Part shown: positions 302-58,436 of the stretch, piece after piece
Layout of the letters: every line of letters begins with the position of its first letter
Numbering within the stretch: position 1 is the stretch's first letter
From: Blasia pusilla
Lineage: Eukaryota
DNA: 64,000 nt
Reading direction: 5' to 3'
NCBI GenBank assembly: GCA_050084515.1
Contig: CM114271.1
Span: forward strand, 19,344,001 to 19,408,000
Program-made: the position numbers and the translations under genes
Notes under the pieces: model-generated
Seen by the model: only the letters and a program-made list of their open reading frames with translations
Databases searched by the model: none
What the model was told of the DNA's origin: nothing

Positions 302-1252
302 ATTCGGGTGTTGGATCTCTTTGGAGGGATGAGCAGTGGGTTAGCTGTTGTTTTGTACGCTGGAGTGCACATACAATAGTACGTGTATGTGGAGATTGAT
401 GATGTTACAAGACGCGCTTCACTTCACCGTGTGGCGCAGTTATGCCTCCGTTTTCCCAACTTCTTGTCTGCGTCCGCCATTCAGGGTTACTAGAGTTCCT
501 TACCGAGGGACATTTCATTGTTGGGGGCGCATGACTTGGAGCGGGTAGGGATTGTAGGCTTGGTCATTTCTGGTTGGCCGTATCAGGGCCAATCGAGTGT
601 TGGACGAGGTAGCAAGTTAGCTAACACTCGGTTGAGGTTGTTCTGGGAGATGATGCGGATCTTGCAAAATTTACAAGAGCATTAGCCTCATTCTCCAGCA
701 TACATTTTGGAGAATGTGCCGATTTTGGGCGATTCGAGGTCCTACGTGGTGACGAGTGCACATTAGGTGCGCGTATGGATCGGCCCCACAGTGTTGTTAG
801 ATGCGGAAAGTGTAGGTTCTAGAGCACACCGCCCGTGTCTTTGGTGGACCAACTTGGTACCATATGAGGTGTTGCGGAGGGCTTACGCAAGAGTGGAGCG
901 TCCCTTTGATTTGTTGGTGGATTCTGTATTGGATTTGGGCGGTCAATCACAGGAAATTAGGCTAGATGATCGACCACCGTTGATTGTGGTCAATAGGATT
1001 GGTAGGCCACGGGCAACCTTTCCCACATTGGTGAGTTTTCCCGCTTCCTATGCATTCAAGGAGGCCGGAACTGGCTTGGTTTGGGATGACCAAGTACAGA
1101 GGTTGGTGGATCTCAACGCAGATGAGCGAGAGCGAGCGATGGGATTCCCCACAGGAGTGACGGCAGTACCGTCACTATCAGAGGCATCACGACGTCATGT
1201 CTTGGGTTAGGCAATGGACTTAAACTGCTTGACATGGATTTTTAGCTTAGGA
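302..1252 (+). pseudogene. Retrotransposon-encoded DNMT3-like C5 cytosine methyltransferase domain (copy 1; catalytic Cys mutated to Tyr, in-frame stops)
   Basis: All in one frame: IRVLDLFGG (motif I, 302), YVEID (II), DI..L (III), LVISGWPYQG (IV, TAT at 581-583), ILENV (VI, 710-718), GSRAHRPCLWWTN (VIII), ERERAMGFPTGVT (IX), SRRHVLG*AMDLNCL (X). Resembles the DNMT3 catalytic domain (RARYFWGN; EMERVFGFP..T; ARQRLLGRSW). Confidence 0.9.
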
Positions 1253-1532
1253 GTAGCTGAGCAGCGTCGTTTGAGGATGCGACAGATCACAACTCTTACG
1301 CTAGTGAGCCCCATGCCTACGGAGATGGTTGAGGCAGTGGCTGGCGGCCAAACTCGAGGAGATCGACACACCAAAGGTGATCGGAAGAGACACCCTTGGA
1401 CTTCTTGGGATGTTTTGCAGGTACGCCAAGAGATGATAGCCACAACATTGAGCGTGGTTCCGGGTACTGCATGTGGAGATGAGAGTTCTATTGTCCGAGG
1501 CGGGGTTTCATCATAGCAACCATCGACATCCG

Positions 1533-2167
1533 TATCGTGCAAATACACATCGCTACACAACATACATCGTTGTCATCTAACACACACACAAACACACACG
1601 ATCCCATGCTAACTCATGGCATCCAAACAGCGAGACAAGAAGTACTAAAATATCTCCAATAAAGTAAGATCCAATCTCTCTCCACACTATCTCACACCAT
1701 AGCTCTCAAAGGTGTGCACTCTCTCTCATGTCAAACCAAACCCACTCTCCTAATGAGCGGCTTGGGTGACACTCACAAGGCAAGGGACCATAGCTCCGCT
1801 GCCTTATGCCAAGAGGTTCAACAAAGAGAGAATGAGCTCTCAAGCTCTCTCTTGGAGGTATATCCCCTTCCCTCTCCCAAGCCCTCTCAACCGTAACCTA
1901 TTCTCCCAAGTCACCTCCTTGGCTCTTGACCTGATGTAGGAGGTCAAGGGCCACTTACCAAAAATATAAAGTTGATCATACACTCAAAATGATACTTACC
2001 TAAAATAGTTCCTCAATATGGCTCCAAATGAGCCGAAACGAAGGAGAAACCTGCTCTCTTAGGTTTCTCAGGGCCTCAGTAGGTCATCCTCTGACTACTG
2101 AGCATTTTCTCCACTTCTAACAGAGGCTTTAACTAGATCTCACGGATCTATCCTAAAAGACGTGACA
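1533..2167 (-). mobile_element. Solo terminal unit (A+B, 635 bp) of the DNMT-Gypsy family, nested in reverse orientation in copy 1
   Basis: On the minus strand it reads TGTCAC...GCACGATA and is homologous to 5974-6620. Flanked by the 4-bp duplication TCCG (1529-1532 and 2168-2171). Removing it restores the linker QPSTSASESPTVVTMETWEP, collinear with copy 2. Confidence 0.88.
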
Positions 2168-2250
2168 TCCGCGTCGGAGAGTCCTACCGTAGTCACGATG
2201 GAGACTTGGGAGCCAAATATGGGTATTAAGTTGACAGAAGGAGAGCGGAG

Positions 2251-2692
2251 TGTTGGATTCTCTACATCCACTTCTTTGAGCACCATTAATCTGATCGGCC
2301 CCCTTGTATGAGGAGAAGCCTAGATTGATGGTTCCGACTTAAACGTCGGAGGAGTCATAGTAATATGACATAGGTGGTCTTAAGAGTAGCGTTACTAGGA
2401 TTATCTAACCCTTTATTGCATCAGGGTGCGGTGCACCCTAATGCAATCTAGAGTTAGGATTAGGGGAAAAAATTCTATTAATAGAAACAAAGAAAAATAG
2501 GTTAAAAACCCTAATATCCTGAGAAGTGAAATAGTTGGGAGCCGCAGCGGTAGCGGATTCTCGTATGTCGAGTTATCTTCATGTTTAGGTTCCATCGAAG
2601 CTCTTCTGTAAGCGTACGGACGAACTAGGCCACTTTGTATCTCTAAGTTTCGTAAAGATTTCAGTGGTTTCGTCACTTTCTATTTTCTAACA
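2251..2692 (+). mobile_element. Solo LTR, family L2 (442 bp; orientation arbitrary)
   Basis: TGTTGG...CTAACA ends with 5-bp TSD CGGAG/CGGCG. Removal restores the pre-RT frame (EGERR*IHQFL). Related copies at 24078-24293 and 24429-24777. Confidence 0.88.
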
Positions 2693-2699
2693 CGGCGTT

Positions 2700-4090
2700 A
2701 GATACACCAGTTCCTTAGGAATTATAGGATTTATTTTGCATTTAGTATGTATGATTTGAATACGCGTAAGGGTCCAGGGATCCGCATTGAGTTGTCGAGT
2801 GACACGCCGATCTTCCGACGACGCTACAGGTACAATGACATGGAGAGGGATCTAATTTAGGGTAGGAGCTAGGACTTGGTTGGAGCAAGACTAGTGGAGA
2901 TGTCGCATGGAGAGGATGCATCAACCACTGTCATGCCCGCCAAGAAGGATGTGCATGGCAACTTGAAGGACAGGCGGATGTGTGGAGATCACCAACCTAT
3001 CAATCGACACAGAAAGTTCAATAGGTATGCCATGCCCACTCCTGAGCAGATCTTTTGATGTTATTGGACATGCAAAGGTCTTCAGTTTGTAAGATCTTCG
3101 AGCCGGATACCATCAACTGCCTCTTAGATTGGAGGACAGGTAGAAGACGGCAATTTGGGGCATCGATCCTCATGGGAAGGATTGCTTGTACTAGTGGCGG
3201 TTCTTACCATTTGGGTTAAAGAACGCCCCGGCTGAGTTTTAGAGGGTCGTGGATAGGATCTTGGATTGGGTCTAGATTTTACTATGTGTTATATTGATGA
3301 CATCGTAGTCTTTAGCGCCACGGTTGAGGAGCATGATCCACAGCTAGAGGAGGTGTCTCGACGATTGTAGTTACATGGGCTGAAGCTACATCCAAGCAAG
3401 TGCAAGTTCTTCTACGACCAGATTGAGTACCTAGGTCATATGATATATCCACGCCTTGATGTGCAACACACAAAGGTAGAGGCTATTTCATGCATTTCAC
3501 ACCCTACAAATGTGAGTCACGTTTGTGCATTCATGGGATTGGAGAACTTCTATTGACGATACGTCAAGGGTTTTAGCTCGATTGCAAAGCGGCTGACCTT
3601 GCTGACCAAGGTGGATCAGAAGTGGCACTCGGGGGATGAGCAAGAGAGAGCATTTCAGATGCTCAAGGACAGATCAACGTCCGCGCCCATATTGAGGAGA
3701 CCAATCAGGGAGCGTCCTTTCCAATTGCATACCCATTGCAGCATATTGGGGCTTGGAGCCGTGCTCACCCAGCATGACGATGATGGTTGAGAGTTCGTGG
3801 TGGCTTACGGTAGTCGCTCAAACAACGCTGCAGAGGAAAAGTATAGCTCGTATAAGGATGAGTGCTTGGCTGCAGTGTGGGATGTCGCACATTTCAAATG
3901 TTATCTATTTGAAAATCCCTTTACCATCATTATTGATCATCAGCCACTTAAGTGGTTGATGGAGTCCAACAAGCTTATAGGAAAGCTTGCGAAGTGGGCT
4001 CTTTTGTTGTAGGAATATGACTTCCAGGTGGTGCATAGACCTGGGATGCTCAACCAGGATGCAAATGGTTTGAGTCGTAACCCATGCCCG
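2700..4090 (+). pseudogene. Reverse transcriptase + RNase H of Gypsy copy 1
   Basis: PAKKD..RRMCGD, RYAMPTPE, DLRAGYHQL, PFGLKNAPAEF, CYIDD (3287-3301), FQLHT, YSSYKDECLAAVW, DHQPLKWL. Multiple stops and frameshifts. Confidence 0.93.
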
Positions 4091-4439
4091 AGTCAATGAG
4101 ATGCGACTCGAGCTCGTTGGCATGGTGAGAGTGATGAGGAGTTGGTGCTAGGATGGCATGCGTCAGCCTATTTGGGCTTGTTGGCTATGGAGAGCTAGAT
4201 TGTTGAGACTTCTATGGCAAGGTCTCATGGAGAGTCCTAAGATCCAGAGTCCAGTGAGGAGACGACACGTGGCCGAGACATTTACGACGATGGAGTGGTC
4301 TTGGAGTACCTACGTACTTGCAGCGTTGCGAGCATAGTGGTTGCTAGAGAGCGGGATCAGATCCTACAACGAGCAAGACGGTTTTGATGGGAGGGGACAC
4401 ATGTGTTATGAGTGTGGGAGGATGGTAGAGTGTGTGTAG

Positions 4440-5670
4440 TGCCTCATTCTTTGCAAAGAGCACGTTTGGTGCATTATGTCCACGAGGAGCTACGTCATTT
4501 TGGAATGAAGCGAACGTACAGCTTGTTAGGTTCAATATTGATGGCGAGGCATGCAGATTGACGTTCAGCAGTTTGTTGCTAGATGCATGGTGTGTGATCG
4601 AGTCCAAGCATCTTTCAATGCTCCGACTCCACACTTGCATCCACTTCCAATCATGGGTTTAGGTTATAGATGGAGTTTGGATTTTGCAGGACCTTTGCCT
4701 TTGATGGAGCATCATAGTCGTTATGTGTTGGTGATGGTCAAGCACTTCTTAAAGTGGATACAGTTGGTTGCCTTGCCAGACGAAGCAAGTGAGGGAGTAG
4801 CATCTGCCTTCCTAGATCGAGTGCTAAGTCATTACGGCGCACCAGCTAAGGTGTTGATAGACTAGGGTACAAAGTTCCACAGGGAGTTTCAAGCCTTGTG
4901 TGATCAGTTCGATCGACCATCGCACTACTTCACGAGATCATCCTAAGGTGGATGGACTAGCGGAGCGGGTTGTGTAGACGGTGAAGTGAGGACTACACAA
5001 GTAGATTGGGACCTTCAGTTGCCGTGGTTGGCCATGGGATACACATTCAACAGGTAGGCATCCGTAGCCTCTTTCTCATCGTTCTTCTTGATTTATGGCC
5101 GAGAGCCAAATTTACTCTGCGGCCATTCATTGAGATGTTGGTGAGATGTTGAACCTTGATGACCCTGATGTATGGATGCGAGCATGTTCTCAGAGGGTTG
5201 AGTTGTTTTGGAGAGTGATGCCCAACGCGTTTGAGAACTTGGCGATTGCGCAACACCGCGATACGTTGAGGTATGCAACTATTCGGGGAGGTGGTTATCG
5301 ACCTACTATCCGGAGGTTTCATCAAGGAGACTTTATCTACTTGCAGCAGACGGCACTCACAACGTTGGATGTGACTGCAGGGCGCACCATCTTGAGAGAG
5401 CGTGAGGTTTTGCCATCCGGTGTTCTCTTATTGGAGGGACGCGATGGTATGGTTTGGAAGGGCCATATGCGTAACCATGCACCATGTCATCTTTTGAACA
5501 TGGACGGTACAATTGATCAATGTTTGCGGTGTATGTCGTGTGGTTTTACCCGTGGTGCAATCACTATGCTAGTCTATGATGGGTGTTCGAGAGGATGGCA
5601 TATGACATGTTTGACGCCACCTCTCACTAAGATTCCTCAAAGCTGATGGATGTATCCTAGATGTACATAG
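4440..5670 (+). pseudogene. DDE integrase + C-terminal PHD finger of Gypsy copy 1
   Basis: VHEELRHFG...CMVC zinc-binding motif, WSLDFAGPL, VLID*G, DGLAERVV. Then CMSC..MLVYDGCSRGWHMTCLTPPLTKIPQS*WMYPRC (5530-5664). Confidence 0.9.
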
Positions 5671-5852
5671 CGTAGATAGTTCTAGATTGTGACTTATATC
5701 TATGACATGGATGACAAGAAGGCAACTAACGATGGGTCCACATGAGCACCCTGCCTTCTTGCTCTTAGCGTCTAAGAGATGCATGTCATGGTAGGTAGGG
5801 ATAGATGGCAATCTGGAGTTAGAGGGACCTAACCACCAACTAGGGAGGCGAT

Positions 5853-6620
5853 TGGAGATATTTTGGTACTTATTATCTCGTTGTTTGGATGCCATGAGTT
5901 AGCATGGGATCGTGCGTGTTTGTGTGTGTGTTCAGTGACAACGATTTTGTTGTGTAGCGATGTGTATGACAGGTGTCACATCTTCTAGGATAGATCAGTG
6001 AGATCTAGTAGGCCGCCTTCATGAGTAGTGGAGGATAGGCTCAGTAGGTTGAGGATGACTTGCTCAGGCCCCGTGAAACGTGACAGACCAGGTTTCTCCT
6101 TCGTTTTGGCTCATTTGGAGCCATATTGAAGAACTTACTATTTTAGATAAGTATCATTTTGAGTATATGATCAACTTTCTATTTTTGGTAAGTGGCTGTT
6201 GACCTCCTACATGAGGTCAAGAGCCAAGGAGGTGACTTGGGAGCATAGGTTACCATGGAGAGAACTTGGGAGAGAGAAGGGCCGATATACCTCAAGGAGA
6301 GAGAGCTTGAGAGCTCATTCTCTCTTTGTTGAACATTTTAGCATGAGGCGACGGAGCTATGATCTTGCTTGCCTTATTTTGTAACCCAAGCCTCTCATTA
6401 GGAGAGTGGGTTTGGTTTGACATGAATAGAGATATGTGAGAGTGCACACATGTGAGGACTATGGTGTTGTGAGAGAGATTGGATCTTATTTTATTGGAGA
6501 TATTTTGGTACTTCTTGTCTCTTTGTTTGGATCCCATGAGTTAGCATGGGATCGTGCGCGTTTGTGTGTGTGTTCGGTGACAGCAATGATTGTTGTGTAG
6601 CGATGTGTATGCGCACAATA
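5853..6620 (+). repeat. 3' terminal modules of copy 1: B1 (5853-5971) - GG - A (5974-6494) - B2 (6495-6620)
   Basis: 5853-5967 and 6495-6610 are near-identical direct repeats (TGGAGATATTTTGGTAC...GCGATGTGTATG). A starts TGTCAC. The purine tract AGGGAGGCG lies before B1, not before A. Confidence 0.85.
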
Positions 6621-6786
6621 TCAATGACTAGAGTTATTTACCGATTGTCTAGCCCCAATCATTTCCTGTAAATGACTTGGCTTATATGACTCTAATGGTC
6701 ATGAGTCATTCTTAGTCATTTACAACAAAAAATTGACTCGACCTAGTCATTTATTGGAGTCATAAAAACCAAGATTTCCTCTAGTG
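6621..6786. mobile_element. CACTA/En-Spm-like DNA transposon terminus
   Basis: Ends ...GATTTCCTCTAGTG (reverse complement CACTAGAGGAAATC). Preceded by dense short subterminal repeats TGACT/AGTCA in both orientations. The other end is not seen. Confidence 0.65.
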
Positions 6787-7474: not shown

Positions 7475-8630
7475 ATACCCTAAACCCTAGCCCACTCTTC
7501 AAGAGAGAATCCAAGCTAAATACATGCAAGCCGCACTATATCACGGATACTAACAAGGGTCTGCAATCCTGAGTTCATCCAAGGTATACCCTCCTGGGCA
7601 CCTCAATGGGTGACGTGTAAACACAACTCACCTCCCTCCTAGCAGGTCACTACCAACCTGTAGTACACACAAAATAGCTCCCTAACAACTACACATGTGG
7701 TCCCCTCATGAGACCAACTACCAATTAACCCACGACCCTATAGATCCAAGTGGAGCCATACATGGCTGGGAAGGTCATCCTCTCCAAGGTTGTCATTCCT
7801 CATAAAGGGAAGGGTGACCTACACTCGTAGGTCGTCTCCTAAGAGCAGGTCACATATGACCTCTCAAAATAGGGGATCAGAAGACCCCTCTAAGGCCTTG
7901 ATACTATCTCGCCCTATGCCTCATCTACCATGATAGATGTCGTGCAAATACACATCGCTTTCAACATACATCGGCTGTCATGCACACGAATGTATGAGAT
8001 CCATCTAACTATGAATCCTAACATCTCTACACATGAACAAATGGACAACCCCAATCGCCCTCCTAGCTGATGGTTAGATCCCTCTAACTCTAGATAGCCT
8101 CCTAAACAAGTCTAAATGCCATGCACCTGTTTGGTGCTAAGATCAAGAGGTCGGGTGTTATGTCGCACCATCGTTAGTCACCTTCCTACAATCCATAACA
8201 TCAAGATTCATCTTGTATCTACCTATCACACCTATGTACATCTAGGATAAAGCGAACATCCCTGAGCAACCAAATCAACAGGCGGCGTAAAAAATGACAC
8301 ATGCCTTCCTCGATCACACCGATCACAAACTAGGATCGTGGCTACGCCTCTGGCAGACCCACACAACATGCATCTCAAGCCTACGGGAACAGCTGCCAAG
8401 CTCACATCAATCCCCCCATCTACCTTTAGAAGATGAAATGGCACACAGTTACATACATGATCTTTCCAAACGGTACCATCACGACCCTCTAAAACAAGGA
8501 CTCCTGAAGAAAAAATCTCTCGCACTCGCAAAATAGTTAGTCACGCCGTCCCGTCCAATGTCGTCAACGCTGTCTGTTGTAGGAAGACATAATTGCCAAG
8601 ATGGAACCTCCAAATCCCAGGATGGTTAAC
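7475..8630 (-). mobile_element. DNMT-Gypsy family copy 3, 3' fragment (integrase C-terminus, PHD, B1, A-like module)
   Basis: Minus strand: WRFHLGNYVFLQQTALTTLD...EGRDGTVWKDHV...CMLCGSARGVATILVCDRCDRGRH...YPRCT* (stop at 8232). Then the conserved GTTAGAGGGATCTAAC/purine motif, B ending GCACGACA at 7938, spacer TC, and A-like sequence from 7935. Confidence 0.88.
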
Positions 8631-11159
8631 TTCCTGTGAAGACTTCGAATGGAGTTTTATCATGAACTCCTACTGTTGGAGTTCGCTTGACTAAGAAGAT
8701 TGCACATGCTACAGCCTCTTCCCAATACACCTTAGGCATGTTCTTCTCATTCAGCATAGCTCGTGCCGCTTCAGCAATATGTCGATTCTTCCTCTCACCA
8801 CTCCATTTTGTTGTGGAGTGTAACGACAAGTCACTTGATATTGGATGCCATTCTGACGTAAATAGTCATCAAACTCTATTGAAAGATACTCTCCTCCTCC
8901 ATCACAACCCAATTTCAGAATGTGTTCTCCAGTCTGCTTCTCTACTTGAACTCTGAATGTTTGGAACATTGAGAATACTTCTGACTTGGATTTCATAAAG
9001 TATACCCATATATACCTAGAGAAGTCATCAATAAATGAAACAAAGTACTGGCAACCACTAAGGTTATGTTGTGATGTTGTCCACACATCACTGTGGATCA
9101 ACTCTAATATCTTGGATGTTCTTCTACCTTGCTTTGGAAATGGAAATCTAGCTTGTTTTCCAAATTGGAAAGCTACACATACCTCTAACGTAGCAGGACT
9201 CGCTAATTTAGAGATTCCTATTACTATATTAGATGATGAAAGACTCTGTAATCTTTGAAGATTCATATGTCCAATTCTTTTATGCCACACATTTAGATCT
9301 CGTGACTTGTTGGCCACTTTGACCATACATTGCTGTTTGAATCTCTGGCATAGAAACATCTAATTTGAACATTCTGCGAGATCTAGTTGCTTTGGCTATC
9401 GTACTCTGGTCATCCATTGTTTCAATGAAACAACCATCTGCGTTAAACTTCACTTGATAACCCTGTTCTACTATCTTTCCTATAAAGATTAGATTTCTTG
9501 CAATGGTAGGAACATAGAGAATATTTGCAAGAGCATAAAGACCATGTGATGCTATTGGAACTTTACCGGTATGCGTGATATGATGTTGAGAGTCAATCTC
9601 TTGTGAGTATAATTGGAGGATCGTTCACCGGCTTCAAACTACTGAACCATTTAGCTTGTGAGGTTATGTGGTTTGATGCACCGGAGTCAATATACCAATA
9701 TGCTGTCGAGTCTTTCTTGACCGTTGCTCCCATATGATGAGTCATGACCAAGAGATGCTCCGTTTGTGAATATTGTTATTCTTGGTACTGCTCTTGGTGT
9801 TATTGCTCCACATAGTTTTGTTGTTGTAAGGCTCCTATTCTCATATCTGCCTTCTTCTTGAAGAAAAACTTTACATAGTGACCCTTTATGCCACAGTAAT
9901 TGCAAGATCCAAGGACCCTCTATTGGTAGCCTCGACCCCAACGATTTCTACCATCACCACCTTGTGATTGTGTCTGTACTGGTTCGTAGTTGATTGAGTG
10001 ACGTTATATTGAGTGCTTCTTCCTCCATATGCTTGATATCCACCACGACCACGGAAGTTTTTGCCATGATCCCTGCCTTTGTTTGGTCCATAACTTGCAA
10101 ATAGCGCACAGTCTTGCAGACTAGACAAGCTACCGCTGCCTACTAGGCGCATTTCTTCACTGATTAACAGAGGAACTAACTCTTGAAAGGTTGAATACTT
10201 CTCTCTCACAGAGATAGAGGTCTCAAAGGACTTGTAATCCTTTGGAAGGCCTTGAAGAGTGAATAAAATCATATCATCATCTTCTATTGTCACTCCAATG
10301 CTATTTAACTAATCAACAATATGTCAGATACTCAAAATATAATCATTGATGCTCTACGATCCTTTCCTTACTTCGTTCAATTTCTGTTTTAATTGAAGCT
10401 TTTTGGCCTTTGTAGATGTCTGGAAGAACTTTTCCAATACATCCCAGGTCTCCTTTGGAGTATCAACATCTTGGATGTGACCTATCATTGGCGAACTGAT
10501 CGTTATTGAAATATAGTGGATTACTTGCCTTGCGCGTTTGTTCAAAGCTCAAACATTAAAGTCTATTGAGTCACCTTCTGGCTTGGCTTCATCACCTATG
10601 ACAAGCTCTCATAGTTCTTGACCCATGAGAAATTATTTCAAGCAAAATTTCCAAACATTGTAATTCTACTTGTCTAGCTTCTCGCCTGTGATTGTTGTTG
10701 AGGAATACTCCATGATAAACGATTTCACTCAAAAAAATGTAATTTCAAGCTTTCTACTGCTCCAATTGAAGCATAGACCACTCCTACATAGAAATCGACC
10801 TGCTCCTACATAGAGAGCAAACTGCACAACTTTTCTTCACTTATTGCACTTTCCTACACTGAAATTGCTGCTGCAGAAGCTTAGAGTGTCAGAATCAAGT
10901 GATTTTGGGTGCGTTGGAAAGCTCTTGACAAGCTCTACAAGACGGCTAGAACTTGCTTTTGGCATCATTCTAGCCGAAGCGGACCCAGATGGCAGAATCG
11001 ACCAAGAAAGCCCTAAAAAATGCCTCCAAAGTTTTATCACCGTCCAAGCTTCTCTTGAAATCTGCTCCCACGGAGCTATCAATAAAATTTCCTTCTCCCA
11101 AAATGAAATTGTGCCTTCTCTTGCCTCTCTTATCTCTTCAAATACCAAGAATTTCAAGT
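8631..11159 (-). mobile_element. Ty1/Copia internal fragment (5' leader, gag, protease, integrase N-half), no LTRs
   Basis: Closely homologous to 17120-19845: gag (LQGLPKDYKSF), CNYC..GH knuckle, YWYIDSGASNH protease, [33 protein letters not shown]. Truncated at both ends. Confidence 0.93.
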
Positions 11160-12450
11160 TATGGTCGTGTGACTATTGCCACAGATATGGTCACATTAGG
11201 GATAGATGTTTTGACCTTCGTCAAGAGGCACGTCCAGAGGTAGGCCGAGGGCCTAGGGGCAATCGTCCTGGAGGAAGTCACGGAGTCCTTCCTGGACATG
11301 GTGGTAGAGGACCACCACCAGCAAGAGGAGCTGGAGCAAGAGCACTAGAGCCGGCACTTCTCTCACGCATTGATCAGTTGGAGCAGAAGATTGCTGCCAT
11401 GACGATGATGCAGCTCAGGGAAGGCACTGAGCCGCGAGCAGCTAGTGTGGCTCCAGTTTCTACCTCTTACCCTAACCTAGGTGAGGATCTCACTAGTATG
11501 GGATTTATGTGTAGTGCAGCTCAGGTTGAGACTGCTGTAGTGGTGACTCGGGGTGCTACGAGAGGCATCGAGCCATCAAGAGGTGGAGTTGAGATTGAAC
11601 CATCAGAGGGGACCAATGGGCGGCAGGCCACAGTTCCACAGTCATTCACATTATCGAAGGCACTACACACACAATCGATGGTGCCTTGACGACCAGTGGT
11701 GCCTTTATGTCATGCAAGTATGTCGACGTTACAAGGAGTTGGAGTGACAACTCCTATGTTGGCTCAAGTGGAGTCAGTGTCGACCATAGTGTTGGAGGTG
11801 GCCATCAGAGTGAGCCAGACTCCACTATTTTCCGCCATAGAGTTGGCGACATTGGGAGTTGGACCAACTGAGGTGTTCCGGCTGGCCGCCACGTTGTGTG
11901 AGCGTGGAGAGGTGACCGCTTCTTGTTTTGAGGTAGTTGAGGAGGTGGTGGACTTGCCCTCAGAGCCGGTGCTCAAGACGTCCCCCACAGAGTGATGGCA
12001 TGCGGCGGCGGAAAAGTTGGTAGATATGCCAGCTCGACCGGCCATAGAGCAAGCAATGGTGACACCTCGAGTAGTGTTACTGGATAACCAAGCTAGAGTA
12101 TTTTGCTTGGTTAATCCGATGGGGAAAATATACCACCCGCAGCGCGTCCTACTTGATTCGGGAGCCGAGCCCTTGATGTTAGGGAAGGCGGCGTGTTTAG
12201 CGTTGGGGTTACGGAAGACCAACATTAAGCCTTTTCAGACCTCGATTGGGGGCGTGTCATCCACGCAGTATATGACTCGATAGGAGATAGTTTTTAGAGT
12301 CCATCCAGAGCATGCGACGGATAGTGCTATGGTGCGCACACGTGTGATTACAACACCAGCTGACTCATACGATGGGTTGGTGGTTGGTGGGGAGTACAGT
12401 ATTATATCCCCTAGGATTCATCCTTGACTTTTGGGAGGAGACCGTTGTTT
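11160..12450 (+). pseudogene. Gag C-terminus with CCHC zinc knuckle and aspartic protease of copy 2
   Basis: CDYCHRYGHIRDRC (11168-11209) followed by a G/R/P-rich segment. RVLLDSGAEPLMLG (Asp at 12155) is in the same frame. Confidence 0.85.
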
Positions 12451-12870: not shown

Positions 12871-14790
12871 GTTAGGGTGTTAGATCTCTTCGGAGGGATT
12901 AGCATAGGATTGGTTGCGGTATTGTAGGCGGGCATACGGGAGCATCAGTACCTTAATGTGGAGAAAGATGAGACTGCACAGCGAGTATCATTACGTCATG
13001 TAGCAAGATTGGTCCAAAGGTATCCAGAGTTGTTGCCGGTATCTGCAATACAGGGATATCATCATACACTACCCGCCGACATCTCTTTGGTGGGGGCGCA
13101 GGATCTGGATAGAGTTGGCACCAGTGTCACGACCCTCATGACCAAACGAGTGCCAAAGCAGAACATCGGAATATTAGTGGGCTCACACTAAGATGGTTTG
13201 CGCGTTGGAGTGGTCTCGAAGAAGAGACAAGAGACGGGATGCAAGCAAGGCTTTGCGTTTCAGATGTTGTGGTCGCGACTAAGAAACCTGGACCAAACGC
13301 GAAACAAGACTTGAAAGGAGTTGAGTTTAGAAAGTGGGTTGCCAAAGGAAGGAATCCGGATTTGGGACGCCACTAGCTTTGAGAGTTTTCAACTGTATTT
13401 ATGGCCATAACTTTTAGCGCCAAGATGCGTTTGGATTGGACAAGGATGTGTTGAAGGCTTATGAAAAGTTGGTTCAAACGCACTAAAGATCTCTGCTAAC
13501 GCATAAGCAGTGGCTGAGAAACAACCCGGAAACGACTGTAAGTAGAGTCGGGTTGAGGGCCACAATGAAGGGCCTGACCCTCCTTTTCCAAAGATGGGGG
13601 GTTATTGGAGAACCCCAGAAGTACTAGTAAGGGGAAGGTCTCCAAGAGTGCTTGGAACTCGAACCCCACTTTGGGCGCCATGAGGCGGCTCAAGGGAATG
13701 GAACGAATCGAGAGTTTGGGGTTGGGTTGGAAAACCTAAACCAAGTCTATGGAGGCGATTTTAGACATCCCTCTTGGATTTCACCCCGCAACTCAATTAC
13801 TTGGGTCTCGATTTGGAACTCACATGAGGTCCGTTGAACAGTTGGGATCGCTAGGCACGCAAGTGCCATTTTAGGTTCCTGGACTAATCAAGAAGTTTGT
13901 TCCAAGTCTTGAAGGTTGAGTTTGATGAGACGCCGAGGTGAGAACTCGGTGGGTTGGAACGCTGGTTGGCCTAGACCCGACTAACAAGAGTGCGTGTTTG
14001 GGTGCAGATCGGCGATGAGATCGTGTCCTACTGAACGTACGCTTCCGCAACAATAAAGATTGACGTTCAAGGAGAGTAGGGGCGCGATAATTCATTTGGT
14101 GATTGCTGGATGGCCATGTCAGGGTCATTCATCAGTTGGCCAAGGGTTTGGATTGCAGGACCCGAGGTCAGGGATGTTTTGGGAGATGTTGCGAGTAGTA
14201 CGACACTTGCAAGAGAGTCAGACATATTTTGCAGCATAGATTGTGGAAAACGTGCCATTTTTTGGAGACACTCGTGCACGTGTGATGACGAGTGTGCATC
14301 AGATGAAATCCTGGTTGGGACCTGCTGTGTTGTTAGATATAGCGAGAGTTGGATCACGCGCCCATCGTCCACGACTATGATGGACAAACTTGATACCATC
14401 AGAGGTACTGAGTCGAGCATACAATGGAGTCTAGAGAGCACCACATCTCACAGTGGATGCTATTTTGGGCTAAGGGCGTCAATCTCAGGTGGTGACGCGG
14501 GATGATAGACCACCGTTGGCGATGGCCAATAGGGTGGGGGAGTTGAGGGCAGCCTTACCTACATTGGTGAGCTTCCCAGCATCACATGCCTTTCGTCAAA
14601 GAGGGCCAGACATGATTTGGGATGAGGTGACCCAAGCATTGGAGGAGCCTACAGCACATGAGCGCGAGCGCGTCACGGGGTTTGCTACGGGTACTACTGC
14701 GATGCCACGTATGACTGAGGCATCCCGGAGACAGATGTTGGGGTAGGCGATGGACCTCAACTGTCTCACGTGGATAGTCCGCCTAGGTAT
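12871..14790 (+). pseudogene. DNMT3-like C5 cytosine methyltransferase domain (copy 2), split by a solo LTR at 13125-14089; catalytic PC intact
   Basis: VRVLDLFGG (12871), NVEKD, DISL, then the insertion. After it: LVIAGWPCQG (TGT 14117-14119), DPRSGMFWE, IVENVP, GSRAHRPRL*WTN, ERERVTGFATGTT, SRRQMLG*AMDLNCL. Confidence 0.93.
13125..14089 (+). mobile_element. Solo LTR, family L3 (~965 bp; orientation arbitrary)
   Basis: TGTCACGACCC...GGGGCGCGATA imperfect terminal inverted repeat. Absent from copy 1 at the equivalent site. A diverged relative lies at 60758-61539. No clean TSD. Confidence 0.8.
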
Positions 14791-15046
14791 GGATGAGTAG
14801 AGACGGATGCGAGTGTCAACCATGCCGTCATGTTCACGAGTTGGACCATTGCCTATACGGTCTGTACAGGCATTGGCTAGGGGCAGAACGAGGAGAGATA
14901 GGAACCCATGGACTTCCTGGGACGTCGTTCGAGCGGAGAGTACGAAGGCGGCTAGAGCAGCACATGTTTATTTTTTGGATGTGGAGCATGGTGTAGGAGG
15001 TCAGAGTGGAATGGTTGTTGCGGAGGTGGCTAGGGTTGCTACATAG

Positions 15047-16764
15047 CAACCAAAGCCAGAGGTTGCGTCCTCTCCAAGTGAGGTCACGATGGAGACTTGG
15101 GAGCCTATGATAGGTCTCAAGTTGATAGGAGGAGAGTGACGGCGAGTTCATAGGTTTCTAAGAGGGCTTGTCAGTTGTTTTGCCTTCAATATGAGAGACT
15201 TGGGTACGCTGAAGGATCTCCGGATACGGATTGAGTTGGCTATTGATACGCCGATCTTTCGTCGAACCTACAAGTATTGTGATAGGGAGTGAGCCTTGAT
15301 TTACAGCAGGAGTCAGAACTTGTTAGAGGCAGGACTTGTGGAGTTATCACATGGGGAGTATGCATCTGACACAGTCATCCCAGCGAAGAAGGATATGTAT
15401 GGTAATTGGATGGATAGGCGGATGTGTTGAGATTACCGTCTTATCAACCGACACACGAGGTCAGATCGATACGCCATGCCTACTCTTGAGGAGATCTTTG
15501 ATGCAATAGGGAATGCAAAGATCTTCAGTACTTTAGATCTCCGTACTGGCTGTCATCAGCTTCCTATCAGGTTGGAGGACAAGGAGAAGATAACATTCTC
15601 GGGGATAGATCGGTTCGGGAGAGATTGCTTGTATTAGTGGCGGTTTTTACCATTTGGGTTGAAGAACGCTCCTGCGGAGTTTCAGAGAGTGATGGATAGA
15701 ATTCTGGTTGGCTTGGAGTTTATACGATGTTACATAGATGATATTCTTACCTTCAATTCCACGGTTGAGGAGCATGAGTGACATCTGGAAGAGGTGTTTC
15801 GGCCATTGCAGTTACATGGACTGAAGTTGCATCCATGAAAGTGCAGATTCTTTCAAGAGCACATTGAGTACTTGGGACACATCATATACCCAAGTGGGTT
15901 AGGCGTTCAGTAGAAGAAGATGGAGGCTATTGCGCAGATTCCACGCCCTACAGATGTGAGTCGAGTCTGAGCGTTTCTTGGACAAGTGAACTTCTATCGA
16001 CGGTATATCAAGGGTTTTAGTGCGATCGCAAAGTCTTTGACCTTGTTGACGAGACTTGATCGTGTTTGGTTGTGGGGAGATGATCAGGAGTGAGAAATTT
16101 AGGAGCTCAAGGATAGGTTGACGTCCTCACCCATTTTACATAGACCGGTTAGGGATCGCCCATTCCAATTACATACGGATTAGAGCATGTTGGGTCTAGG
16201 AGCAGTGCTTTCTCAGAGGGATGACGAGGAGAGGGAGTTCGTTGTGGCTTATGTGAGCTGATCGAACAACATTGTAGAGGCAAAGTACAGCTCTTACGAG
16301 GGAGAGTGCTTGGCTGCAGTGTGGGCCGTGGCACATTTCAAGTGTTATTTATTCGGCAACCGTTTCACACTTATCACTGATCATCAACTGTTGAGGTGGT
16401 TGATGGAGTCCGACAAGCTTACCGGAAAGCTTGCCAGGTGGGCTCTATTACTACAGTAGTATGAGTTTGAGGTGGTTCATAGGCTAGGTCGGTTGAACCA
16501 GGATACGGATGGGTTGAGTCGTAACCCATGTTCGAGTTAGAGAAACGACACATGAGCTCGATGGCACCGAGAGAGTGATGAGGAGATGGTGCCCGATTAG
16601 CATGCATCATCTGCCTATCTTTGTTGGTTGACTATGGTAGGTCAGTCGCAGGTAATGACTCCAGTGGTGGGGTTGGATGATGAGTCTTTGGATCCGGAGG
16701 TCAGTGAGGAGGCGATAGGTGGTCGTGATATCCATGACGACGTGGAGGTTGTGGAGTTCTTACG
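15047..16764 (+). pseudogene. Reverse transcriptase + RNase H of copy 2
   Basis: Same frame as the MTase C-terminal half: PIFRRTYKY, PAKKD, RYAMPTLEEIFD, STLDLRTGCHQL, PFGLKNAPAEFQR, CYIDD (YIDD 15731-15742), FQLHTD, YSSYEGECLAAVWAV, TDHQLL. Confidence 0.94.
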
Positions 16765-17094
16765 TATTGAAGATTGAGTTACAGTCAAGCTCATGAGATA
16801 CCTAAACTACTATATTTGGTACTCACACGAAGTAGGAAAACTTAATCTTGGTTAGTCAGTTAAGCACGATTATCTTAACTACGGTTAGTTAATCACAGTA
16901 AGTCTAACACGAGACTATGGTTAAGGGTAGGGTTAGGGTTGCTTGTACATATCCTATGTAATTGAGAAGAGGACTAACCTCCACTTATTCTTTCATCGCA
17001 AATTTTGTTCTCCATGGTGGTGTGTGTGTGTATGTGTGTGTGTGTGTGTGTGAGCCTTTTTCTACCAATTCTGCTTGTTTAGCAGTTTTCCACA
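16765..17094 (+). repeat. Copia 5' LTR (TA...CA)
   Basis: Direct repeat of 21937-22248 with a longer (TG)n tract. Confidence 0.95.
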
Positions 17095-17106
17095 TGGTAT
17101 CACAGC
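17095..17106 (+). other. Primer-binding site, initiator tRNA-Met type
   Basis: TGGTATCACAGC, one mismatch from the canonical TGGTATCAGAGC, immediately after the 5' LTR. Confidence 0.9.
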
Positions 17107-17193
17107 GGGAAGAGAACATCACTTGAAATTCTTGGTATTTTAAGGGAGAAGAGAGGCAAGAGAAGGCACACTTTCAGTTTGGGAGAAGGAAAA

Positions 17194-17747
17194 TTTTATT
17201 GACAACACAGTGGGTGCAGATTTCAAATGGAGCTTTCACGGTGATAAAACTTTGGAGGCATTTTTTAGGGCCTTTCCGGTCGATTTAGCTGTCTGGGCCC
17301 ACTTCGGCTAGAATGATGCCAAAGACTGGTTCTAGCCGTCTTGTAGAGCTTGTCAAGAGCTTTCCAACGCACTCAAAATCGCTTGATTTTGACACTCTAA
17401 GCTTTTGCAGTACCAATTTCAGCATAGAAAAGTGCAATTAGTGAAGAAAAGTTGTGCAGTTTGCTCTCTATTTTATTCAAAGCTCAGTGGGTGCAGATTT
17501 CAAGAGGAGCTTGGACGGTGATAAAACGTTGGAGGCATTTTTTAGGGCTTTCCTGATCAATTCTGCCGTCTGGGTCCGCTTCGGCTAGAATGATGCCAAA
17601 GGCAGATTCTAGCCGTCTTGTAGAGCTTGTCAAGAGCTTTCCAACGCACCCAAAATCGCTTGATTCTGACACTTTGAGCTCCTGGATCAACAATTTCAGT
17701 GTAGGAAAGTGCAATTGGTGAAGAAAAGTTGTGCAGTTTGCTCTCTA
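17194..17747 (+). repeat. 277-bp tandem duplication in the Copia 5' leader
   Basis: Units 17194-17470 and 17471-17747. The sister Copia at 10810-11085 has only one unit. Confidence 0.9.
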
Positions 17748-17888
17748 TAGGCCAATTTCGACTAGTTCTTTCATACAGTTGATCAATTTGGGAAAATTTC
17801 AGGTCGACTTCTGTGTAGGAGTGGTCTATGCTTCAAGTGGAGCAGTAGAAAGCCTGAAATTACATTTTTGTGAGTGAAATCGTTTATG

Positions 17889-20800
17889 ATGGATTATTCC
17901 TCACCAACAATCATAGGCGAGAAGCTAGACAAGCATAATTACAATGTCTCGAAGTTTCACATGAAAAAATTTCTCATGGGTCAAGAACTATGAGAGCTTG
18001 TCATAGGTGATGAGGCCAAGCCAAAAGGTGACTCAATAGACTTGAATGTTCGCGCTTCGAACAAACGCGCAAGGCAAGTAATCCACTACATTTCAATAAC
18101 GATCGGTTCGCCAATGATAGGTCACATCCAAGATGTTGATATTCCGAAGGAGGCCTGGGATGCATTGGAAAAGCTATTCTAGATATCTACAAAGGCCAAA
18201 AAGCTTCAATTGAAACAGCAATTGAACGAAGTGAGGAAAGGATCGTAGAGCATCAATGATTATATTTTAAGTATCTGACATATTGTTGATTAGTTGAATA
18301 GCATTGGAGTGACAGTAGAAGATGATGATCTGATTTTATTCACTCTTCAAGGCCTTCCAAAGGATAACAAGTCCTTTGAGACCTCTATCTCTGTGAGAGA
18401 GAAATATCCAACCTTTCAAGAGTTAGTTTCTCTGGTGGATATCAAGCATATGGAGGAAGAGGCACTCAATATAACGTCACTCAATCAACTACGAACCAGT
18501 ACCACACACAATCACAAGGTGGTGATGGTGGAAACCGTTGGGGTCGAGGTCATCAATAGAGGGTCCTTGAATCTTGCAATTATTGTGGGATAAAGGGTCA
18601 CTATGCAAAGTTTTGCTTCAAGAAGAAGGGAAATATGAGAACATGAGCCTTACATCAACAAAATTATGTGGAGCAACAACACCAAGAGCAGTACCAAGAA
18701 CAACAACATTCACAAACGGAGCATCTCTTGGCCATAACTCATCATAGGGGAGCAATGGTTAAGAAAGACTCGACAACAGATTGGTACATTGACTCTAGTG
18801 CATCAAATTACATGACCTCACAAGCTAAATGGTTCAATAGTTTGGAGCCGGTAAAAGATTCTGTAATTGTGCTCACAGGAGATGACACTCAACATCATAT
18901 CACGCATACCAATAAAGTTCCAATAGCATCACATGCTCTTTATGCTCTTGCAAATATTCTCTATGTTCCTACCATTGCAAGAAATCTAATCTTTATAGGA
19001 AAGATAGTAGAACAGGGTTATCAAGTGAAGTTTAACGCAGATGGTTGTTTCATTGAAACAATGGATGACCAGACTACAATAGCCAAAGCAACTAGATCTC
19101 GCAGAATCTTCAAATTAGATGTTTCCATGCCAGAGATTCAAACAGCAATGTATGGTCAAACTGGCCAACAAGTCATAGATCTAAATGTGTGGCATAAAAG
19201 AATTGGACATATGAATCTTCAAAGATTATAAAGTCTTTCATCATCTAATATAGTAATAGGACTCCCTAAATTAGGGAGTTCTGCTACGTTAGAGGTATGT
19301 CTAGCTTGCCAATTTGGAAAACAAGCTAGATTTCCTTTTCCAAAGCAAGGTAGAAGAACATCCAAGATATTGGAGTTGATCCACAATGATGTGTGGACAG
19401 CATCACAACATAGCCTTGGTGGTTTGCCAGTACTTTATTTCATTTATTGATGACTTCTCTAGATATATATGGGTATACTTTCTGAAAGCCAAGTCACAAG
19501 CTTTCAGAAAGTTCAAACATTCAAAGTTCTAGTAGAGAAGCAGACTAGATAATACATTCTGAAATTGCGTTGTGATGGAGGAGGAGAGTATCTTTCAACA
19601 GAGTTTGATGACTATTTACGTCAGAATGGCATCCAACGTCAAGTGACTTACCGTTATACTCCAAAAAAAAATGGAGTGGTTGAAAGGAAGAATCGTCATA
19701 TTGTTGAAGCGGCACGAGCTATGCTGAATGAGAAGAACATGCCTAAGGTGCATTGAGCAAAGGCTGTAGCATGTGTAGTCTTCTTAATCAACCGAACTCC
19801 AACATCAAGAGTTCATGATAAAACTCTATTTGAAGTCTTCATAGGAATTAAACCTGATTTTTCCTTCTTGAAAGTATTTGGCTGTATTTGTTATGCTCAT
19901 GTTCCTTTTGAGAGACGTCAAAAATTAGACCCCAAGTCTGAAAGATGTATCTTCATTGGCTATGTTGATGGAACTAAGGGGTATAAGTGCTACATTCCAT
20001 CCTCTAGGCAGCTTATTATTAGTCGGGATGTTATCTTTGATGAGCTAAAGTCATGGTATGCTCCATCCAAGCCTATTCCACCTCTAAACTTGTCTGTTCA
20101 GAGAGAGAATATTCCTATAAACCAATAGACATTGTCTTCAACTTCCCCAAGTACTAGTGCAGGATTAGGAGAGGTCCTAGATTCATCCATTAAATCTGTG
20201 AGTCCATGGACGGAAAGAGTACATATTCAGTCTGTTGACACTAGTCAGAGCTCGAGGTAGATGTCAGAGGCATCTACCTCTAAACAACAACTTCGTAGAT
20301 CAAGTAGAGTTACACATCCAGTTCATAGATTCATAAATGAAGGTTTTCTTGTGACACATCATGCATATATGATGACTACCCTTCAACAGCAAGAGCCAAG
20401 TTATTTTGAAGAAGCTGCGAGTAAAGCCGAATGGATTGAAGCTATGGAGGAAGAGCTTGCTGCATTAAGACATCAACAAACATGGGAGCTGGTTGATATA
20501 CCTTCCGGTAAGGAAGCTATTGTTTGCAAATGGGTTTACAAAATCAAGCGCAATCAAGATGGTACAATTAACAGATACAAAGCAAGATTGATGGCTAAGG
20601 GCTATGCACAACAATATAGTATCGATTATGAGAAAACATTTAGCCTTGTTGTAAAGATGGCGACTACGAGAATAGTGGTTGCAATTGCAGCAAGTAAGAA
20701 GTGGAGATTATATCACATGGATATCAAGAATACCTTCTTGAATGGAGATCTATACGAAGAGGTATATATGACTCAACCACCTAGATACGAGCATCCCAAG

Positions 20801-21949
20801 TTTCCATTTCGCGTATGCAGGTTGAAGAAAGCTCTTTACAGGCTCAAACAAGCTTCAAAATCTTGGTATGGCAAGATTACATACGTTCTACAAGAGTTGG
20901 GTTTTAGGGTATGTGATTTTGACTCCTTGCTATATGTCTTGAGAGGACAAGATTATACAGTTCTCATTGTGTTGTATGTTGACGATCTCTTGATTACTGG
21001 GAGTACTGAAAAAATGGTACAACAAGTCAAGCTTAAGTTACAAGCAGAATTTGATATGAAGAACTTGGGAGAACTCAAGTATTTCCTTGGTATTGAGTTT
21101 ATCAAGGTTGGAGAGAGCATGTGGCTACTACAACAACAACATGCTCTTCATATGCTTTCAAAATATGGTATGAAGGCTTGTAAGCCAATATCTACACCGT
21201 TGGACCAGAGCGTGAAGCTAAGAGTGGATGAAGGAGAGTTGCTTGCAGACTCTAATATGTACACGCGCATGGTTGGAAGTTTGATCTATCTAAGTATAAC
21301 CAGACGAGATTTAAGCTATGTTGTTGGCCTAGTGAGCCAGTTTATACAAGCACCTCGAAAACCTCACCTTGATGTTGTGAGGAGGATTATTCGGTATGTG
21401 AAATTCTCTATTCAATTCGGGCTTCAATTTGAACCTTCTCCGAGTTTTCAATTATAGGGATTCATAGATGCTGATTGGGTAGGAAGCGTGTCTGATCCGC
21501 ACTCCACATCTGGTTATTCATTTACTTTGAGAAGCGTAGCTATAAGTTGGGCTTCAAAGAAGCAAGCTATAGTTGTTTTATCTTCAACAGAGGTTGAGTA
21601 CATAGCAGCAACCAATGCAGTATGTGAGGCGGTGTGGCTTCATCAATTACTTGTTGAGATTGGTGTTAGTAACTTAAGACCTAGTGTAATATTTACGAAC
21701 AATATTAGTAGCATCAAGCTTGCTAGTAACCCTGTGTTGCATGCTCGTACAAAGCATGTTGAGGTGCACTATCATTTTATCATAGAGAAAGTGCTTGCAG
21801 GAGAAATTGATCTTGTGTATATAGGCACAGATCATCAAATTGCTGACATCTTTACAAACGCATTGTCTAGAGATAAGATTGAGATGTTTAGAAAAGATTT
21901 AGACGTTGGAGATATCGATATGAGCTTGAGGGGGAGTATTGAAGCTTGA
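17889..21949 (+). pseudogene. Copia gag-pol polyprotein (disrupted)
   Basis: WYIDSSASNYM (PR), WHKRIGHMN, RCDGGGEY and NGVVERKNR (IN), CKWVYKIK/YKARLMAKG/LYVDDLL (RT), WASKKQ/HARTKHVEVHYHF/QIADIFT (RNase H). Stops and frameshifts present. Confidence 0.95.
21928..21936 (+). other. Copia polypurine tract
   Basis: GAGGGGGAG directly abutting the 3' LTR. Confidence 0.88.
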
Positions 21950-22248
21950 GTTACAGTCAAGCTCATAAGACACCTACACTGCTACATTTGGTACTCACAC
22001 GAAGTAGGGAAGCTTAATCTTGGTTAGTCAGTTAAGCATGATTATCTTAACTATGGTTAGTTAATCACAATTAGTCTAACTCGAGACTATGGTTAAGGGT
22101 AGGGTTAGGGTTGCTTGTACATACCCTATATAATTGAGAAGAGGACCAGCCTCCACTCATTCTCTTATTGCAAATTTTGTTCTCCATGGTGATGTATGTG
22201 TGTGAGAGTTGTTTTCCACCAGTTATGCTTGTTTAGCAGTTTTCCCCA
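21937..22248 (+). repeat. Copia 3' LTR (TA...CA)
   Basis: Direct repeat of 16765-17094. Confidence 0.95.
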
Positions 22249-23656: not shown

Positions 23657-24077
23657 GGTAGTAGGTCATCTCAGAGATATGTGATATTTTCTATCTAGAG
23701 TTAGGAGGATCCAACTGCCAACTAGGGAGGCGGTTGTGTGATCTCCATGTATATGTATGAGTTGATTTTTGTACATCTGTGGATCCACCCGTGTGTGGGG
23801 AAGATCGATGTTGTGTGGTATAGATGTGACCAACGATGTATATTCTGTAGCGATATGTATGCGCATAACAGCTATCACATCTGAGTAGTCGATAGGCCGA
23901 GATCTATTGTGGATGGGCCATTGGAGCACCTCTCTTGTATGTGTGTGAGATAGGACTAGGGTGCTAGCGTCCGATTCCTTGATAGCGCAGGTGGACGAGG
24001 CTCGATATGCCGATGTAGATTGAGGAGTGGAGTTTTACGCCCGGAGTGTCGTTTTTACTTTTCTTTATTTTTCTTCA

Positions 24078-24293
24078 TTTCTATTAATAGAAATAAAGAT
24101 AAATAGGTGAAACATCCTAGTTTCTTGAGTAGTGAAATAGTCAGGAGCCGCAGCGGCAGCGCATTCTCGTATGTCGAGTTATCTCCATGTTCAGGTTCCA
24201 TCGAAGCTCTTTTGTGAGCACACGGACGGACTAGGTTGTATCTCTAAGATTTGTAAAGATTTTAGTGATTTCGTCACTTTCTGTTTTCTCACA
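24078..24293 (+). mobile_element. L2 LTR, 3' half
   Basis: Homologous to 2473-2692; ends TTTTCTCACA. Confidence 0.82.
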
Positions 24294-24428
24294 GGTAGAT
24301 GGCACCATAGAGAGGGGTACGTAGAGGATAGTGAGGAGTTAATTAGGCCGTTGGGTACCTTGTGGGAGGGAAAATTGTGCAAAGCGCCAAAAACAAGGCA
24401 TTGAGGTCTCCATCATTTTTTACTTTTT

Positions 24429-24777
24429 TGTGAGAAAATAGAAAGTGACAAAATCACTGAAATCTTAACAAAACTTAGAGATAAAAATGGCCTAGTCCGT
24501 CCGTGCGCTCACAGAAGAGCTTCGATGGAACATGAACATGGAGATAACTCAACATACGAGAATGCGCTACCGCTTCGGCTCCCGACTATTTCACTGCTCG
24601 GGAAACTAGGGTTTTTACCTATTTTTATTTGTTTCTATTAATAGAAAAATCCACCTACGTCGTATTACTATGACTCCTTCATCGTCTAAGTCGGAACCAT
24701 CAATCTAGGCTTCTCCTCATACAAGGGGGCCGATCAGATTAATAGTGCTCAAAGAAGTGGATGTTGAGAATCCAACA
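24429..24777 (-). mobile_element. L2 solo LTR, inverted, lacking an internal ~90-bp segment
   Basis: Reverse complement matches both ends of 2251-2692. Flanks TTTTT/TTGTT are compatible with a 5-bp TSD. Confidence 0.85.
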
Positions 24778-56559: not shown

Positions 56560-56575
56560 ATCAATCTTATAGTAC

Positions 56576-58404: not shown

Positions 58405-58436
58405 TAACTTTACATAATCATTGTCCCCACTTTGAG

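Follow-up and report, generated by a model that had tools for sequence, protein, structure and literature searches.

Split end repeats and an internal CA-NN-TG joint in an integrase-encoding gypsy lineage

Both the biology of LTR retrotransposons and the programs used to annotate them assume two equal LTRs with the PBS and the PPT placed directly against them. The lineage described here breaks this rule: it keeps a DDE integrase and target-site duplications (TSDs), yet its end repeats are split in the style of DIRS elements. One of its members lies in a 64,000-nt stretch of Blasia pusilla DNA (the window), and its 3' end at positions 5813-6620 raises the question of how an element that encodes an integrase would use a joint, carried inside its own sequence, between copies of its two end modules. 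This stretch is the 3' end of an old, broken element of Ty3/gypsy order, from a lineage with split end repeats. Below we set out the modules of this end and of the two other copies of the family in the window, compare them with relatives in which both ends are visible, and weigh the routes by which such an element might replicate and insert.

Module order at the 3' end in the window

Direct reading of 5813-6620 (plus strand) gives the order motif and purine tract, B1, GG, A2, B2. The conserved motif and purine tract (5813..5850), which end in ..CTAGGGAGGCG and are seen in the three window copies and in metagenome relatives, are the presumed plus-strand primer site (PPT) and abut B1 (5851..5971), an internal copy of the right-end module that ends in ..ACA. 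After the GG spacer of this internal CA-NN-TG joint (5972..5973; J1), which is also 2 nt long in 17 relatives and in RNA reads, comes A2 (5974..6492), an LTR-like module that starts TGTCAC and aligns end to end with a solo copy at 2167..1660. B2 (6493..6620), identified by repeat comparison with B1, is the terminal B copy and the right end of copy 1, and it follows A2 with zero extra bases (6492/6493). B1 matches 6493-6611 with 92% identity over 119 nt (BLAST E 3e-43). The original prediction ended copy 1 with a second B reaching 6620, which stands; from the solo copy and the relatives, we corrected its last bases to ..ACA/..ATA at 6620. Within the motif (5813-5835) there is a short inverted repeat, GTTAG..CTAAC, kept in the window copies and in one metagenome group (L001-L033), that may form a structure next to the plus-strand primer site.

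The B-NN-A joint had been described for all three window copies, and direct reading and alignment bear this out. The 3' end of copy 2 (23693..24040, plus strand) has the motif and purine tract, B1 at ~23734-23870, the spacer GC and an A that starts TATCA at 23873; that of copy 3 (7480..8098, minus strand) has the motif and purine tract, B1 at 8055-7938, the spacer TC and an A that starts TATCA at 7935. Module order is the same in all three, with DNA identity to copy 1 of only ~70-80% for copies 2 and 3, and B in the window copies is 116-136 nt long and ends in ..ACA. No B2 of copy 2 or copy 3 was found by a sensitive, permissive BLAST of the window, as the first reading had it. The A of copy 2 is cut near 24050 by an unrelated inverted-repeat element (24078-24647; arms of ~220 nt, 88% complementary), a relative of which (86-94% alike) is inserted in the coding region of copy 1 at 2251-2692. 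Copy 3 is cut off at ~8621 by a partial, inverted copia element (8624-11166, minus strand; gag_pre-integrase and rve at 8754-9359).

A solo A+B unit (1533..2167, minus strand), which starts TGTCAC and is 84% identical to 5974-6620, is nested in the coding region of copy 1. CGGA stands on both sides of it (2171-2168 and 1532-1529 in minus-strand reading), and A+B in the window is therefore a unit beginning at TGTCA; its exact insertion point could not be fixed by comparison with copy 2, which is too diverged there. An ordinary LTR equal to A+B, with a U5 duplicated before the 3' LTR and a purine tract 120-136 nt upstream that is not a working PPT, would be compatible with the window alone, where the solo copy at 2167..1533, flanked by CGGA, shows A+B acting as a unit. 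The window holds no 5' end of the family: as the original prediction said, none was found, and BLAST detected no 5' regions like those of the relatives.

Upstream of this end, copy 1 has a decayed polyprotein with many stops and frameshifts (767..5646, plus strand), pieced together from reading frames and Pfam matches. It consists of a C-terminal DNMT remnant (767-1207), RT (2873-3553; RVT_1), RNase H (3557-4009; RT_RNaseH), integrase (4241-5149; Integrase_H2C2 and rve) and a C-terminal region with a PHD finger (5134-5643, stop at 5644-5646; PHD), all on the plus strand, and it is interrupted by the solo A+B (1533-2167) and by the other insertion (~2251-2692). Copy 2 has the same domain order and is split by a nested copia element. 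By Pfam, window copy 1, copy 2 and the intact relatives are alike in the order RT, RNase H, DDE integrase, which is the Ty3/gypsy order. We detected no Pfam match to a tyrosine recombinase (PF00589) in the window pieces, in the polyproteins of five relatives or in 10 of the 18 ORF pieces of L003, a single decayed element whose 5' 4.5 kb has no Pfam match of any kind. When compared with an ordinary Ty3/gypsy element, the family has a short TSD of 4 bp; its relatives have A only at the 5' end and B-NN-A-B or B at the 3' end instead of two equal full-length LTRs, and its purine tract abuts B1 rather than a 3' LTR, with A2 starting 116-136 nt plus 2 nt further on.

The methyltransferase remnant can be recognised from a relative: window 767-1207 aligns to residues 158-310 of P0024, beside its PF00145 match, with 42% identity (E 1e-25), and a weak DNMT3A match in the window agrees with this. 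PF00145 matches are present in P0024, P0065, P0070 and P0047. Remnants of a C5-DNA-methyltransferase lie upstream of RT in copy 1 (767-1513) and copy 2 (14303-14932), the two being 56% identical in amino acids; the DNMT of more distant relatives is placed between RNase H and integrase. The proteins closest to the integrase-PHD end are from bryophytes (Marchantia polymorpha, 73%; Calypogeia; Sphagnum) and then from green algae, and several of them carry PF00145.

Stranded RNA reads with the same species label give sense coverage of 5542-6630, the first mate falling almost only on the minus strand. Most of these reads, at 85-95% likeness, derive from other copies. The joint appears in them as B-end, AC, TGTCAC (50 reads in X20), and other reads have heterogeneous sequence before 5974 (agreement 0.57). 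Some reads join 5795 to 6286 (4 in X19, 8 in X20; none in two DNA contig sets), skipping 490 nt without GT..AG ends, which could reflect a template switch, or an expressed copy with a deletion. At 6499, just past A2/B2, 13 molecules of X19 begin, with the first mate on the minus strand, where the depth beside them is 32; as an RNA end this is ambiguous.

Other repeats share the window with the family. The Ty1/copia element nested in copy 2 (16764-22203, plus strand) has 268-nt LTRs at 16764-17031 and 21936-22203 that are 91% alike, and an RVT_2 ORF at 20261-21454; inside it are two tandem 277-nt units (17193-17746; 87% alike), with inverted matches at 10810-11103. An 88-nt repeat occurs in three copies, at 50450, 57891 and 58205, and the region 54000-60000 is AT-rich (GC ~0.30 vs 0.40-0.54 elsewhere).

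Relatives with both ends visible

Relatives were taken from metagenome loci that encode kin of the integrase-PHD end, as the best 80 of 368 confirmed loci (449 candidate stretches). Among these best 80, 68 have at least 300 nt downstream, and 27 of the 68 have B1-NN-A2-B2, with an A of 290-340 nt between the two B copies. After apparent duplicates are collapsed, the 27 loci represent ~17 insertions in at least three diverged groups. The A module of the relatives has a TATA box and a site complementary to the predicted PBS. Nine distinct 5' ends are visible (L003, L007, L010, L012, L028, L030, the second element in L039, L035 and L058), and in all nine the 5' repeat is A alone, followed by a 5' leader, with unrelated flank before it and no B on either side. 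The elements take two forms. Form I is A1 - coding - purine tract - B1 - NN - A2 - B2, and its full layout, 5' end included, with A recurring alone, is visible in three loci (L012, L030 and L058). Form II, seen in many copies, is A1 - coding - purine tract - B, and the sequence beyond B is unrelated flank. Distinct cases of form II and form I number ~9 vs 4-6 in group 1 and ~15 vs 12 in group 2. One locus has neither form: in L024 (3299-3602) the PHD stop and the next module, the second half of A (starting near position 177), are 21 nt apart, and B comes next; the purine tract, B1, the spacer and the first half of A2 are absent, and the breakpoint adjoins the PBS-complementary site.

The 5' ends bear directly on the reading in which an A+B LTR has a duplicated U5. 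All nine have A only, with PBS-like sequence directly after it, and there is no purine tract at the end of B. Moreover, the solo A+B unit is equally expected from A1xA2 recombination in form I. This alternative, which the original prediction had allowed for, is excluded for the relatives and, by extension, unlikely in the window; we consider it very improbable overall. Two other ways of drawing the LTR were also ruled out. An LTR equal to B-NN-A-B, with a repeat inside it, disagrees with the solo copy and with all of the 5' ends, which start at A. A B that is the true short LTR, with A internal, as in a TRIM-like tandem, disagrees with the position of A1, which stands at the element edge beside the TSD with no B before it.

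The start of A, TGTCATG (or TATCA), and the end of B, ..CGTGACA/..CACGACA, form short inverted repeats. The spacer from B to A is 2 nt in all 17 relatives' loci and in all three window copies, and its letters vary among the relatives (GC is the most frequent, then AC, TC, GT and CC). A perfect 4-bp TSD pairs the start of A with the end of B in five of eight evaluable units: L012 (form I), L003, L010 and L035 (form II) and the solo unit in the window. Three of four bases agree in L007 and L058, there is no TSD in L028, and L030 is 5'-truncated. If the element ended one base earlier, a 5-bp TSD would fit equally, because the base before the upstream copy is A in four perfect cases. The form I element L012 lies, from A1 to B2, within a single TSD. 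Chance tandem or nested insertion, another of the alternatives raised at the outset, is therefore unlikely, given the constant spacer and the single TSD in L012. The guess that an integrase element has the structure A1-ORFs-B1-NN-A2-B2 gains support from the relatives, through their A-only 5' ends (9/9), their 2-nt spacer and a TSD that pairs A-start with B-end, and we take the split direct repeats to be a true feature of this element. The layout of the window family's own 5' end is inferred from these relatives.

The existence of two forms leaves room for a simpler history, in which form II (A-coding-B) is the normal insertion product and form I arises occasionally, by insertion of a dimer or of a second A+B head-to-tail, so that the extra B-NN-A has no role in replication. 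Form II is no rarer than form I, its copies L003, L010 and L035 have perfect TSDs of their own, and the window has a free-standing A+B with a TSD, all of which this history accommodates. It accounts less well for the spacer, which is 2 nt in 17 of 17 loci and not a 4-bp TSD, for the one TSD around A1...B2 in L012, and for the recurrence of form I in at least four diverged groups and in three window lineages. Furthermore, a form II transcript would have no 3' A for first strand transfer, so that a lineage of this form could probably not persist under retroviral rules. We give this history a low probability.

Trees of the repeats are informative about the state of an element when it inserted. 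In L047, L061 and L040 the element's own B1 and B2 fall together (SH-aLRT 99, 95 and 93, respectively), as do A1 and A2 of L030 (SH-aLRT 85), and the trees contain no position-specific clades among the repeats. Since repeats cluster by element and form no clade by position, they were alike at insertion. Every copy in the analysis is old, with repeats 80-98% alike, and broken.

Priming sites, the A2/B2 joint and a candidate route of insertion

If the element follows ordinary rules of reverse transcription, the sequences that abut A1 and B1 should be its priming sites. In group 1 (L003 and L007), A1 is followed immediately by 12 nt whose perfect complement lies within A. The 15 nt found at this place in group 2 (L058) have a different sequence, and their perfect complement is the corresponding site in A. 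In both groups the complementary site begins 31-32 nt after TATAAA, from which the transcript start is predicted, and the observed length of complementarity was reached by no more than 1 in 1000 shuffles of A. Hence, the sequence just 3' of A1 looks like a self-priming PBS of the Tf1 type. Of the nine distinct 5' ends, only three have the complementarity intact. It spans 9 nt at the same site in L010 and 11 nt at another site in L012, and in the other four there is no complementarity of at least 9 nt. We read the missing complementarity as decay. On the other side of the coding region, a purine tract abuts B1 in all groups, one of which has a poly-G tract at that place.

The two priming sites give a predicted identity to the A2/B2 joint. 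In the window, in group 1 and in group 2, this joint directly links the base that precedes the predicted PBS to the one that follows the purine tract, without any extra nucleotide; the exception is L057/L058, which has a small deletion there. The predicted cDNA tips lack TG..CA inverted repeats, which are found at the start of A and the end of B (TGTCATG / TGTCGTG).

We propose an explanation that we hold at a little under an even chance as a whole: the cDNA would be self-primed and have B-NN-A as its LTRs, its ends would be joined, and integrase would cut it at the internal CA-NN-TG. Specifically, A would be a promoter-bearing, LTR-like module, with minus-strand DNA self-primed, as in Tf1, at the PBS directly 3' of A1, and plus-strand DNA primed at the purine tract directly 5' of B1. 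Ordinary reverse transcription of an RNA that runs from A1 into A2 would then give a linear cDNA with an LTR equal to B-NN-A. The ends of this cDNA would be joined, either in a 2-LTR circle or by end-to-end template switching, and the A2/B2 seen in genomes would be that junction. Because the A2/B2 positions are those expected for the cDNA tips by ordinary rules, form I can be described formally as [B-NN-A]-PBS-coding-PPT-[B-NN-A] permuted circularly and opened at one CA-NN-TG. Integrase would ignore the cDNA tips and would use instead the inverted-repeat ends that stand back to back at the internal CA-NN-TG. Nicks 3' of each CA, 2 bp apart, would leave recessed CA-OH ends with 2-nt 5' overhangs, like a processed retroviral end, and this distance between the two nicks would explain the fixed length of the spacer. 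Insertion would then make the TSD, and the inserted copy would be a circular permutation of the cDNA. Form I should be the replicating form, because only form I keeps the 3' A (R) for first strand transfer; form II and the solo A+B could be by-products of the same cutting, or the results of later BxB and AxA deletions.

The earlier suggestion that the family may replicate through a junction-containing or circular intermediate, cut by a DDE integrase, is still a hypothesis, but it suits the anatomy better than expected: A2/B2 looks like joined cDNA ends. Further evidence agrees with the proposal: the likeness of the repeats at insertion is what the route predicts, and the RNA reads across B-NN-A are as needed by it. 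Other observations count against it. Only old copies were seen, and no circle, concatemer or cDNA end, and the PBS complementarity is intact in a minority of the 5' ends. The circle model predicts a mirror product, A-B-NN-A-coding-B, which was seen at none of the nine 5' ends (only three form I elements have a visible 5' end). The frequency of form II, at least that of form I, could mean that unit-length insertion is the main route, and L028 has no TSD. In addition, known retroviral and retrotransposon integrases act at, or a few bases from, the DNA tips.

An internal joint might instead serve replication itself. A template or splint role for such a joint has been proposed for tyrosine-recombinase elements, and replication here could be DIRS/PAT-like with an integrase swapped in: RNA would run from inside A1 to inside B2, B1-NN-A2 would be the template or splint that restores the missing tips, and the DDE integrase would insert the complete A...B DNA, linear or circular. 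The RNA reads that cross B-NN-A fit this scheme, as does the repeat layout, which matches that described for PAT/Ngaro elements in excerpts of two papers (PMC4157794; PMC5890265, Fig. 4c legend). It leaves unexplained why A2/B2 is made of the PBS-side base and the PPT-side base, and why A1 and B1 are bordered by a self-priming PBS and a purine tract, respectively; the clustering of repeats by element, not by position, also stands against it. We regard DIRS/PAT-like replication as rather improbable. The joined-end route that we favour can be put more broadly, and at this breadth it is a tentative claim that we think is more probably wrong than right: a streptophyte/bryophyte gypsy lineage may integrate via joined-end DNA, with its DDE integrase opening an inherited internal CA-NN-TG "att" joint and not the tips of linear cDNA.

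Comparison with known systems

The first reading of this locus implied that the layout is novel; it is already in print for a gypsy element with a DNMT. KnitGypsy-Dnmt3 of Klebsormidium nitens has gypsy domains with a DNMT3-type domain inside Pol, and an A-coding-B-A-B repeat layout is reported in a figure legend (de Mendoza et al., 2018; PMC5890265, Fig. 4c legend). The likeness extends to both features: the window has the DNMT in Pol as a broken remnant, and it has the B-NN-A-B half of the layout, which is complete, as A-coding-B-A-B, in L012, L030 and L058. The window element differs in belonging to another host lineage, judging from its liverwort and bryophyte protein matches, in a comparison that is by description and not by sequence. 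It also differs from the excerpted description of KnitGypsy-Dnmt3 in having the DNMT upstream of RT, as P0024 does, and a C-terminal PHD finger. The same excerpts give no TSD, spacer, PBS or mechanism (PMC5890265). The layout is thus known, and the window element adds a member from a bryophyte-like genome; it is rare, having been noted once before, in a green alga.

Elsewhere, "LTR subparts" are remarked on, in an excerpted account, in the active element Gypsy-7a_cRei (PMC9940879), and literature searches on PHD, gypsy and plants, on Chlamyvir and on TOC1 brought up nothing closer than this and the Klebsormidium report (PMC5890265). Among the matches listed for split direct repeats in retrotransposons, no title and abstract describes an integrase element. 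In the literature searched, supplements aside (those for K. nitens may hold more), we found no account of the TSD, the 2-nt spacer of fixed length, a self-priming PBS, what the A/B joint consists of, or the two genomic forms. What appears to be new here, from sequence comparison, is the PBS complementarity to a site after the TATA box and the identity of the A2/B2 joint. Together, the putative self-priming PBS beside A1, the purine tract beside B1, the A/B joint that would be joined cDNA ends, and the inverted ends 2 bp apart supply a specific mechanism, open to testing, by which integrase might use an internal joint, where before there was a one-line remark in a legend. There is also a practical consequence, in that LTR finders will mis-annotate the lineage, for example by taking A+B as the LTR or B as a TRIM-like repeat.

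Self-priming Ty3/gypsy elements offer a further comparison. In Tf1/sushi elements and the plant Tcn1 clade of Ty3/gypsy, the PBS by the 5' repeat is complementary to the element's own predicted first transcript bases and not to a tRNA, and the lineage may share this arrangement. Among Tcn1 elements, those of mosses and club mosses have been predicted to self-prime (Neumann et al., 2019; PMC6317226). Tf1/sushi and Tcn1 elements have two ordinary LTRs, unlike the window lineage, and the likeness is drawn from the PBS, not from RT or integrase kinship.

The repeat layout itself is shared with PAT-like and Ngaro elements of the DIRS order, including the non-autonomous TOC1 of Chlamydomonas, which are likewise arranged A1...B1-A2-B2 with an internal B-A joint that repeats the two ends of the element. 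These elements encode a tyrosine recombinase and are not known to make a TSD, whereas the window lineage has a DDE integrase, no PF00589 match and a 4-bp TSD. The present lineage is also relevant to the question of how one repeat layout came to occur in both tyrosine-recombinase retroelements and gypsy elements.

A parallel to the CA-NN-TG joint, by analogy only and with a geometry that we read from sequence, is with the junctions of IS3/IS30 circles and of retroviral 2-LTR circles, in which inverted ends stand back to back with a very short spacer and could be opened by two DDE nicks. Those junctions are formed anew in each cycle, whereas here CA-NN-TG is inherited inside the element, and it is the joint between the end of A and the start of B that looks newly formed. 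If integration does proceed by way of the inherited joint, the old circle-junction model of retroviral integration would be realised in nature, and a gypsy lineage would have converged with both tyrosine-recombinase retroelements and IS circles.
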